Origin: an uncultured Verrucomicrobiae bacterium
GTDB lineage: Bacteria > Verrucomicrobiota > Verrucomicrobiia > Chthoniobacterales > Chthoniobacteraceae
Assembly (NCBI GenBank): GCA_963769025.1
Contig: CAVYKI010000009.1
Coordinates: 384,001 to 448,000 of the forward strand
Length of the DNA stretch: 64,000 nucleotides
Direction: 5' to 3'
In this document: in pieces, positions 11,624-13,674 of the stretch
How positions within the stretch are numbered: position 1 is the first letter of the stretch
Layout: each line of letters begins with the position of its first letter
Notes under the pieces: model-generated
The model's database searches: none
The model's input: only the letters and a program-made list of their open reading frames with translations
Told to the model about the DNA's origin: nothing
Made by a program: the position numbers and the translations under genes

Positions 11624-13674
11624 ATGAGTCACGGGCGTCTGAATTTCCGGCATCGAGGCGCAGGCCACCGGGTCGCGCGCGCGCGCGGCGACGTTTCACA
11701 CCGCGCACAATGAAGTGCGCACGCCGCTCTTCATGCCGGTGGGCACGCAGGCGACGGTGAAGGGGCAGCTCACGCAGGCGCTGGAGGATGCCGGGTCGCA
11801 GATCCTGCTCGCGAATACCTACCACCTGCTGCTGCGGCCGGGGCCGGAGGTGTTCCGCCGCACGGGCGGCATTCACGGGTTCATGAGCTGGAAAAACTCC
11901 GTGCTCACGGACTCCGGCGGGTTCCAGATTTTCTCGCTGCCGCACTCGCGCGCGATGACCGAGGAGGGCGCGGCCTTCCAGAGCTACATCGACGGGCGCA
12001 CGATCCTGCTCAGCCCGGAGGTGAGCATCGAGACGCAGAAGGCGATCGGCAGCGACATCATGATGGTGCTCGACCAGTGCATCCCCTCGACCGCGGACGA
12101 AGCGGCGGCGCGCGCGGCGCTCGGCATCACGCATCGCTGGGCGGCGCGGAGCCTGGCGGCGCGCGGGGATTCGCCGCAGGCGCTGTTTCGCCATCGTGCA
12201 GGGCGCGCTTTTTCCAGAGCTGCGGCGCGAGAGTGCGGCGCGGCCTGAGCGCGATGCCGTTCGATGGCTTCGCGATCGGCGGGCTGGCGGTCGGCGAGAG
12301 CCGGAGCGAACGCGAGGACACGTGCGAACTCACCGCGCAACTGCTGCCGCACGATCGGCCGCGCTATCTCATGGGCGTCGGCACGCCGCTCGATATCCTC
12401 GAGGCGGTGCATCGCGGCGTGGACATGTTCGACTGCATCATCCCCACGCAGGTCGCGCAGCGCGGCGCGGCCTTCACCTCGCGCGGCTTCCTGCAATTGC
12501 GGCGCGGCGTTTACAAATTCTCCGACGAGCGCGCTCGACCCGCAGTGCGACTGCCCGACGTGCGCGCGCTACTCGCGCGCCTATCTGCATCACCTCACGA
12601 AGACCGGCGAGCACCTCGGCTGGCAGCTCCTCGGGCAGCACAATCTCTACTTTTACCACCAGCTCATGCGCGAGATCCGGCAGAGCATTTTCGAGGATCG
12701 CTTCCTCGAGCTCTACCGGGAAAAGCGCGCGTTCCTGCACGAGACGGACGCGGATCATCCGATCCACAAGCAGAAGCCGCGGAAGCGGATGGCGTTTCAC
12801 CTTGGCGAACTACGAAGTGCACCGCGCGCCGGAGGGCTTCTGCGAGCATCCGGCAGATTTCCTCCGGCGAGATCATGCACTCGCGCACGCCGCCGATGGA
12901 GGAGGCGCACCGGCTCTACATCGAGCAATCCGAGCTCGCCGAGCGGCTGCACCTTTCCGCCGGCAGAAAGTGCGGAGACCGCCGCGCCGCTGGTGATCTG
13001 GGATGTCGGTCTCGGCGCGGCGGCGAATGCGATGGCGGCGATCCTCTGCTACGAGGCGCAGGCCGCAGCCGGGCCGGTGCGGCCGATGCACATCGTCAGC
13101 TTTGAAAACGATCTCGATTCGCTGCGGCTCGCGTTCCAGCACAACCGCGAATTCACCTACCTGCGGCACAGCGCGATCCGGCGGCATTCTCGACGACGGC
13201 CACTGGCAATCGTCCGCGCCACGCGGGCCTGAGCTGGACGCTCGTGCAGGGCGATTTCCTCGAAACGATGGCCGAGGCTCCGGCGCCGCCGGACCTGATC
13301 TTCTTCGACATGTTTTCGAGCAAGACCGACGGCGACCAGTGGACGCTCGGCGCATTCCGCCAGATCTTCGCCGCGTGCGCGGGACGGCGCGGTGGAGCTT
13401 TTCACCTACACCTGCTCGACGCCGATCCGCGCGGCGCTGCTCGCCGCCGGATTTCACGTCGCAAAAGGGATGCAGCACCGTGGACAAGGTGGACACGACG
13501 ATCGCGCTCACGCCGGAGGCGGTCGGGATGGGCGGCGGGCGTAAGTTGCTTGGCGAAGAATGGCTGGGCAGGTGGAGCCGTTCCGGCGCGCAGTTTCCCA
13601 CGGACGTTTCGGTGGAACGGCGCGCAGCATTCGAGCAAGCCATCCGCGGGCATCCGCAGTTCCGCCGCGTGTGA
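11624..13674 (+). CDS. tgt: tRNA-guanine(34) transglycosylase fused to a C-terminal MnmC/MnmD-type SAM methyltransferase; about 11 single-base frameshifts
   Basis: TGT motifs: [59 protein letters not shown]. MTase motifs: [32 protein letters not shown]...[17 protein letters not shown]. Confidence 0.88.

Follow-up and report, generated by a model that had tools for sequence, protein, structure and literature searches.

In E. coli MnmC, an MnmC2-type methyltransferase domain is fused to the FAD (flavin adenine dinucleotide) oxidase MnmC1, and the two active sites, about 45 A apart, act independently (PMC3648344). Fusions of an MnmC2 domain with Tgt, the bacterial tRNA-guanine transglycosylase, were recorded by Jaroch et al. 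(bioRxiv 10.1101/2023.12.21.572861; J Bacteriol 2024) among 968 genomes chosen for the presence of MnmA, MnmG and MnmE. In the main text of that preprint TGT occurs once, with no function, organism list or experiment, and the genomes concerned are not named there. This single sentence is the only mention of the fusion that we found in the literature; our search gave no further report on Verrucomicrobia and queuosine or on MnmC2 and Tgt, and neither the MnmM paper (PMC9976899) nor the DUF752 paper (PMC3527978) mentions Tgt fusions or Verrucomicrobia. Here we describe a gene with this architecture in a stretch of 64,000 nucleotides from an uncultured Verrucomicrobiae bacterium (assembly GCA_963769025.1, contig CAVYKI010000009.1, positions 384,001 to 448,000), hereafter called the window. 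Like the fusions of Jaroch et al. it joins COG0343/PF01702 with an MnmC2 domain, and in contrast to E. coli MnmC the partner of the methyltransferase is Tgt instead of the oxidase MnmC1.

The architecture is thus already in print and, as detailed below, widespread, being common in Verrucomicrobia of soil; the window holds an ordinary copy that only sequencing errors have broken. In the reading that we favour, with a probability of about 0.5, the gene would encode two independent position-34 activities in one polypeptide, that is, two separately acting tRNA wobble-base enzymes with a flexible linker between them. The N-terminal half would be an ordinary bacterial Tgt, exchanging G34 for preQ1 (7-aminomethyl-7-deazaguanine) in tRNA-Asn, Asp, His and Tyr; this reaction is predicted because the catalytic, zinc and preQ1-pocket residues are fully conserved. 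The C-terminal half would be a divergent MnmC2-type N-methyltransferase, whose predicted substrate is the 5-aminomethyl group of nm5(s2)U34 (5-aminomethyl-(2-thio)uridine) on tRNA Lys, Glu and Gln. For this proposed methylation the DUF752 protein of Aquifex and the N-terminal domain of E. coli MnmC serve as the model. Independent activities are favoured because of the stand-alone relatives of the methyltransferase, its secondary separations from Tgt and the MnmAGE background of the published fusions, and they appear to fit the facts somewhat better than sequential action of the two halves on one base. The precedent of E. coli MnmC, the MnmC2 enzymes as the only nearest solved relatives of the methyltransferase half and an mnmA gene near the fusion at one locus (L067) also count in their favour.

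The fusion gene and its reading frame

After eleven single extra bases are skipped, the fusion gene reads as 679 codons and a stop. An intact relative of 679 residues (P0007) was aligned to the DNA by a dynamic programme in which frame skips were permitted. P0007 and the DNA are colinear from the ATG at 11624 through the final codon at 13669-13671, with the stop at 13672-13674, and 609 of the 679 residues are identical. The alignment needs exactly 11 one-base skips and no two-base skips, codon insertions or deletions, deleted bases or internal stops, and all 11 frame breaks shift in one direction (+1). Identity to P0007 amounts to 348/370 in the Tgt part and 244/284 in the methyltransferase part, as opposed to 17/25 in the linker. 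The features of the gene are as follows, all on the plus strand.

11624..13674, plus strand: whole tgt-mnmC2-like fusion gene, delimited by the frameshift-aware alignment to P0007
Near 11651, 12186, 12241, 12533, 12810, 12841, 12965, 13179, 13216, 13388 and 13473: the eleven extra bases, each position exact to a few bases only
11624..12728, plus strand: Tgt domain, in four reading frames (insertions near 11651, 12186, 12241 and 12533), with Pfam TGT on three pieces
11910..11927, plus strand: DSGGFQ with the first catalytic Asp of Tgt, in frame 0; Asp96 is invariant in 42 fused proteins
12069..12080, plus strand: LDQC, with the substrate Asp and the Cys favouring preQ1; D150 and C152 are invariant
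12278..12298, plus strand: GGLAVGE pocket loop, with Val where the queuine-using eukaryotic Tgt has Gly; G219-E224 are invariant
12546..12641, plus strand: zinc site, CxCxxC at 12546-12563 and His at 12639-12641; C307, C309, C312 and H338 are invariant
12729..12809, plus strand: variable interdomain linker of roughly 25 residues, with low identity to P0007
12811..13671, plus strand: MnmC2-like class I SAM (S-adenosylmethionine) methyltransferase domain, with insertions near 12841, 12965, 13179, 13216, 13388 and 13473
12999..13028, plus strand: SAM-binding loop of 10 residues, matched with ESGFGTGLN in E. coli MnmC (hhalign of methyltransferase-only profile A2 with the E. coli MnmC N-domain)
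13098..13112, plus strand: SFEND, with a Glu that corresponds in the alignment to Glu101 in E. coli MnmC; E492 is invariant
13307..13324, plus strand: DMFSSK, which is motif IV (D-x-F) and holds the Asp presumed to be catalytic; both D559 and F561 are invariant
Within the piece 13392-13478, plus strand: RAALLAAGF, from translation

On the uncorrected DNA, Pfam TGT (PF01702) matches three pieces (profile positions 2-173, 192-283 and 288-352 of 357), and Methyltransf_30 (PF05430) matches the piece at 13392-13478 with 23.0 bits, against a cut-off of 22. An earlier note, made from the letters of the window alone, had read the locus as a complete Tgt running into an MnmC-type methyltransferase. Every Tgt and methyltransferase motif that it quoted was located by three-frame translation of 11560-13720, and its domain assignments hold, as does the reality of the fusion. 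It had also argued that the fusion holds because all three forward frames are open across 12264-12996. The openness was seen (open reading frames, ORFs, at 12077..13105, 12196..12996 and 12264..13232), but it proves nothing alone because it is expected in DNA of 65% G+C; the proof of the fusion comes from the relatives.

Origin of the frame breaks

We conclude that the 11 breaks are single-base insertion errors of the assembly, and the organism's own gene is most likely intact. We ascribe them to assembly noise because there are no deletions and no stops, because all 406 of 406 conserved positions are kept, and because the ileS gene upstream is split in the same manner. The conserved positions were defined on an alignment of 42 fused relatives, and the reading with 11 bases skipped retains all 276 that are invariant in it and all 130 that are near-invariant. 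The contexts of the 11 breaks have neither a 4-mer nor a preceding codon in common, and a codon-usage hidden Markov model revealed +1 stepping elsewhere in the window as well.

The essential gene ileS (6538-9316, plus strand), 2 kb upstream, is split over successive forward frames with at least four +1 steps. Its pieces match tRNA-synt_1 at profile positions 2-182, 184-254 and 329-413 and Anticodon_1 at 1-57 and 61-146. Frameshift-aware alignment to E. coli IleS, noisy across the divergent editing-domain region, places single-base skips near 8033, 8202 and 8821 and a net +1 between 7180 and 7516. The frame of lspA (9320-9832), directly 3' of ileS, is intact. Further runs of +1 steps occur at 47268-49895 (minus strand), in an AlgX-like gene and an MBOAT gene, and at 54263-58448 (plus strand), in a large NHL-repeat protein. 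The stretch from 13.7 to 45 kb is almost without breaks, and 26761-31665 is break-free, so that error density is uneven and clustered.

This unevenness bears on the alternative that frameshifts have truly inactivated the copy in the window and made it a pseudogene. Eleven breaks fall within 2 kb, yet some neighbours are intact (the P450 gene at 13680-14813 and the stretch 26761-31665), as a pseudogene would have it. Decay, on the other hand, would yield mixed insertions and deletions together with substitutions, and what is found is +1 insertions only, with none of the 406 conserved residues lost, like breaks in the essential ileS and two more stretches of the window with runs of +1 steps. We consider a pseudogene highly improbable. 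Programmed frameshifting or four-base decoding was also considered and is ruled out, as the breaks share no 4-mer or codon, the relatives are plainly open and ileS is affected too.

Distribution of the fusion

When the 73-residue piece at 12960-13178 was used as a query for longer proteins, 2204 proteins were obtained at E <= 0.001. Both PF05430 and PF01702 are present in 98 of the 120 relatives among the matches listed, most of which are 674-712 residues long; the architecture that the earlier note had suggested searching for thus proved to be widespread. In their sources these proteins bear the name "queuine tRNA-ribosyltransferase" or "Tgt". A search from a divergent fused representative returned 86 matches, both domains being present in all. 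Across species-representative genomes, profile A2 matched at least 596 stretches, and at least 519 loci were confirmed. Locus counts, neighbourhoods and the tree given here refer to the best 80 of these at least 519 loci.

Nearly all of the best 80 loci belong to Chthoniobacterales, including that of the cultured Chthoniobacter flavus Ellin428 (L005). In 73 of them, one tblastn segment that stays in a single frame spans about residues 1-677 of P0007, and in five others a contig end cuts the gene, with Tgt still continuous into the methyltransferase. Tgt and methyltransferase are in one frame in 78 of the 80 loci. Fused proteins are also named from the Opitutaceae genera Rariglobus, Nibricoccus and Didemnitutus, and from single metagenome-assembled genomes labelled Rifleibacterium, Bdellovibrionales and Spirochaetota. 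For the 80 closest loci these sequences make the fusion look like the ancestral state, and it is old and strongly retained.

Two contigs, one labelled Vicinamibacterales of the Acidobacteriota (L008) and one Planctomycetota (L075), carry fusion genes that are nested among those of Chthoniobacterales in the tree. Mis-binned contigs are a more likely explanation of these labels than gene transfer.

Names in databases have drifted around this family: fused proteins are called only "Tgt" by NCBI, and free PF05430-only proteins are called "queuine tRNA-ribosyltransferase" by JGI. Under the former name, genome annotation gives no sign of the methyltransferase activity. The intact gene in the cultured strain Ellin428 makes the question of function directly tractable.

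Tgt half

Intact relatives pass the equivalog criterion of the Tgt model TIGR00430, with 433.6 bits for P0007 and 437.2 bits for a second relative (P0059) against a cut-off of 306.75, and all 13 further fused representatives score 385-464 bits. Residues 5-368 align with solved bacterial Tgt chains at E about 1e-105 to 6e-108. With the enzymes of Zymomonas mobilis and Thermotoga maritima (e.g. 1enu, 2ash) the fused protein shares full-length alignment, the catalytic Asp residues, the zinc site and the Cys/Val pocket; it differs from them by about 310 more residues at the C-terminus, comprising linker and methyltransferase.

Residues D96, D150, Q192, G219-E224, D269, C307, C309, C312 and H338 do not vary among 42 fused proteins, and the window reading keeps all of them. 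We take Asp96 of DSGGFQ to be the counterpart of Asp102 of Zymomonas Tgt, with which the alignment offsets agree. The preQ1-type pocket residues C152 and V222 are likewise invariant in the 42 proteins. In PMC3660597, which also treats the role of Cys158, Cys/Val marks the bacterial preQ1 type and Val/Gly the eukaryotic queuine type, and the use of the Cys of LDQC and the Val of GGLAVGE as preQ1-type markers in the earlier note agrees with it. Nothing in these residues points to an unusual base specificity, and the pocket is of the ordinary preQ1 type.

Methyltransferase half

The C-terminal domain exceeds the PF05430 gathering cut-off of 22 bits in all three relatives scanned, with 49.4 (P0007), 43.1 (P0001) and 40.5 bits (P0059). 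In a profile search of the PDB the sole significant match is Aquifex MnmC2 (3vyw, E 2e-7), and E. coli and Yersinia MnmC are marginal. An AlphaFold2 model of the domain has a mean pLDDT (predicted local distance difference test) of 81.2 and a pTM (predicted template modelling score) of 0.82. Used as a Foldseek query against the PDB, it returns MnmC2 or MnmC chains at all of ranks 1-9 (3vyw, 2qy6, 3ps9, 3awi, 3pvc and 3sgl; E 4e-12 to 9e-9, query TM-scores 0.50-0.64), and identity to solved MnmC2 is 17-20%. A short N-terminal beta-strand module (YEVH...GEIMHS) opens the domain.

In E. coli MnmC, residues 66-70 form the SAM loop and Glu101 holds the SAM ribose (PMC3648344); the essential motif IV Asp is Asp178/Asp193, and Lys236 is an RNA-binding residue (PMC3648344, PMC3527978). 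The family residues D559, F561, E492 and G460-x-G462 are invariant and align to Asp178, Phe180, Glu101 and Gly66/Gly68 of the E. coli enzyme. Lys236 pairs with a conserved residue of the family (invariant or near-invariant) in the hhalign profile alignment, and Gly70 and Pro182 are replaced by Ala and Ser. The likeness to MnmC2/MnmD/DUF752 (Aquifex aeolicus 3vyw; E. coli MnmC N-domain 2qy6, 3awi and 3ps9) therefore covers the class I fold, the SAM loop, the ribose-binding Glu, D-x-F and the Lys. The domain is very probably an active, divergent SAM-dependent N-methyltransferase of the MnmC2 superfamily, as alignment and model both suggest.

Stand-alone relatives and secondary separations

Profile A2 was also compared with 1.84 billion cluster representatives, giving 1929 clusters at E <= 0.001, 804 at E <= 1e-10 and 367 at E <= 1e-30. 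Only 14 of the best 150 clusters have representatives of at least 600 residues; 13 of these were scanned, and all are Tgt plus MnmC2-like. Of 47 short representatives, selected by length (268-310 residues) and nearly complete coverage, 46 hit the MnmC2 model at 38.8-107.8 bits and one has no hit at E <= 1e-5; Tgt is hit by none. In 30 of the short representatives the N-terminus was inspected: some start in the linker, and many at the first strand of the beta-strand module. Those of the first kind are probably fragments of fused genes, while those of the second, to judge by where they begin, are true stand-alone proteins.

A search started from one stand-alone protein and confined to proteins of 152-487 residues gave 908 relatives at E <= 1e-10, and 118 of the 120 among the matches listed carry PF05430 only. 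Eight of those listed are named "MnmC family methyltransferase" by NCBI; they come from Chthoniobacterales/Chthoniobacteraceae, are 288-324 residues long and lie on contigs of up to 1.87 Mb. Like clusters of 262-286 residues are found in the ESM Atlas in Verrucomicrobiota, Myxococcota and Spirochaetota.

The two loci that lack the fusion among the 80 (L033, 9938-10864, and L045, 9986-10888) hold only the methyltransferase, Tgt being absent within 10 kb. The tree comes from a quick maximum-likelihood search on the methyltransferase regions of the 80 loci. In it the sister of L033 is L025 (support 96), whereas L045 falls together with L048 and L035 (support 82) in a clade whose own support is 95. 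The two thus lie apart, each nested in a fused clade, which indicates that the link to Tgt was lost twice, independently. At L045 the usual upstream neighbours (DUF2911, PIG-L, SSF transporter and glycosyltransferase) are there, but inverted, which points to a rearrangement that broke the DNA within the fusion gene or next to it; the tree branch of L045 is long (0.6).

Function of the fused protein

Several observations weigh against the reading of two independent activities. On NF033855, the NCBI model of MnmC2, P0007 scores 58.4 bits, over profile positions 7-202 of 209, and P0059 54.6 bits, and the cut-off of 136 is not reached; 13 long fused and 46 short relatives, at 32.7-107.8 bits, all lie under it. 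By the standard of this model the clade would hold no MnmC2 equivalog. The tail of motif IV is DMFSS as opposed to DGFAP/DAFSP of MnmC2, so that the fused domain is set apart from MnmC2 by its 58 bits on NF033855, by DMFSS and by its own YEV...GEIMHS strand module. The full-length AlphaFold model is poor (pLDDT 65.8, pTM 0.47, most of the Tgt barrel and linker residues 373-387 below 50) and gives no active-site geometry. Even a defined interface between the halves would not tell the hypotheses apart, since MnmC combines a rigid interface with independent sites. In the literature we found no assay of any member of this methyltransferase clade. Retention of the fusion in 78 of 80 loci and its recurrence in Opitutaceae and other phyla hint at a functional link between the halves that is tighter than chance. 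Finally, neither mnmE nor mnmG was met in the sequence around the carriers' fusion genes, within the limits given next.

Genes of both pathways were sought with tblastn, using E. coli QueA, QueC, QueD, QueE, QueF, QueG, MnmA, MnmC, MnmE and MnmG against the window and the 80 loci, 1.32 Mb in all and only about 20 kb per genome. Apart from one mnmA, 8 kb from the fusion (L067), no separate gene for any of them was found in that sequence; the other matches were two weak ones of MnmC on the fused domain itself. At this coverage the absence of linked que and mnm genes is uninformative rather than negative.

The missed cut-off also bears on a second possibility, that the C-terminal domain is a methyltransferase, of amines or otherwise, with a third substrate (another tRNA position, queuosine or its derivatives, or a small molecule), or mainly an additional tRNA-binding module for Tgt. 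The whole clade lies under the MnmC2 cut-off. The next fold matches are aminopropyl transferases, the spermidine synthases (Foldseek E about 1e-7 to 4e-6), which have an N-terminal beta-strand module in common with the domain and act on small amines, and PF01564 is found on 11% of the members of one Atlas cluster. These matches are nevertheless 4-5 orders of magnitude weaker than those to MnmC2 chains, which alone match significantly by sequence in the PDB. A purely structural role is made unlikely by the invariance of the SAM-binding and catalytic residues. As a whole we hold this alternative to be rather unlikely.

The earlier note had proposed sequential action instead: Tgt would insert preQ1 at position 34, and the fused domain would N-methylate its 7-aminomethyl group (or free preQ1 beforehand), giving N-methyl-preQ1 as a replacement for queuosine or next to it. 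The aminomethyl group on position 5 of nm5U34 and that on position 7 of preQ1-34 resemble each other in their chemistry and occur at one tRNA position, 78 of 80 loci have retained the fusion, which extends across Chthoniobacterales, Opitutaceae and other phyla, and the missed MnmC2 cut-off together with the changed motif IV tail makes another substrate conceivable. N-methyl-preQ1 is moreover a natural product in phage DNA. The earlier note's statement to this effect holds, the base (mdPreQ1) being reported in bioRxiv 10.1101/2023.04.13.536721. Its maker there is DpdM, a DUF3109 protein with a CxxxCxxCC metal motif, which N-methylates the 7-aminomethyl of preQ1 in DNA.

DpdM thus performs the chemistry that sequential action needs, but it belongs to an unrelated family of different fold, with a metal-binding Cys motif and a DNA substrate. 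No DUF3109 match was found in P0007, P0001 or P0059, for which Pfam at E <= 0.01 gives PF01702 and PF05430 only. Other points speak against sequential action as well: stand-alone members of the methyltransferase clade are plentiful and separation from Tgt has occurred at least twice, the window and the 80 loci show neither conserved neighbours of the fusion nor a queuosine-pathway gene linked to it, the Tgt pocket is of the ordinary preQ1 type, and the main text of Jaroch et al. treats the architecture as an MnmC2 fusion in MnmAGE-encoding genomes. We consider sequential action unlikely; the idea of methylated preQ1 is attractive but unsupported so far. A broader version, in which the whole clade with YEV...GEIMHS and D-x-F-S, fused or free, would be a tRNA preQ1-34 N-methyltransferase and not an nm5s2U methylase, appears quite doubtful.

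What follows from the fusion differs among these readings. If the halves act independently, it is another case of joined wobble-base enzymes, and its main value is the practical one for annotation described above. Sequential action, if true, would add a nucleoside to those known from tRNA and give the queuosine pathway a side branch in a major phylum of soil bacteria. If preQ1-34 is the substrate, N-methyl-preQ1 would be a 7-deazaguanosine so far unseen at the wobble position, replacing queuosine or standing beside it.

Gene neighbourhood and other observations

The neighbourhood of the fusion gene is not conserved. Clustering of 899 called genes from the 80 loci placed the commonest neighbour family in only 14 loci, and annotated representatives of neighbours are transporters, glycosyltransferases, kinases and similar. 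The window copy is preceded by ileS-lspA and three small unknown ORFs and followed by the convergent P450 gene. In C. flavus Ellin428 (L005), an unrelated class I methyltransferase (Methyltransf_25/11; 10913-11506, plus strand) lies 10 bases 3' of the fusion on the same strand, and it is not a conserved neighbour.

No riboswitch or other RNA family was found in the window by Rfam at gathering thresholds. ARAGORN called a 91-nt tRNA-Arg(tcg) at 9391-9481 (minus strand), inside lspA, where Rfam has no tRNA, and the call is probably false.

An ISL3-family transposase at 32105-33264 (plus strand) lies in two frames, the zinc ribbon in one and the HTH (helix-turn-helix) and DDE parts in the other, with a step opposite to that of the other breaks. 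It is followed on its 3' side by 2.7 kb (33265-36011) with no coding call, the three longest ORFs of which have no Pfam match; G+C is 0.535 for 34001-36000. Transposase and low-G+C stretch may be a foreign insert. Elsewhere in the window, a full-length protein of the Pup-ligase family (PF03136, 408.5 bits) is encoded at 23488-24858 (plus strand), in what is evidently a Verrucomicrobial genome.

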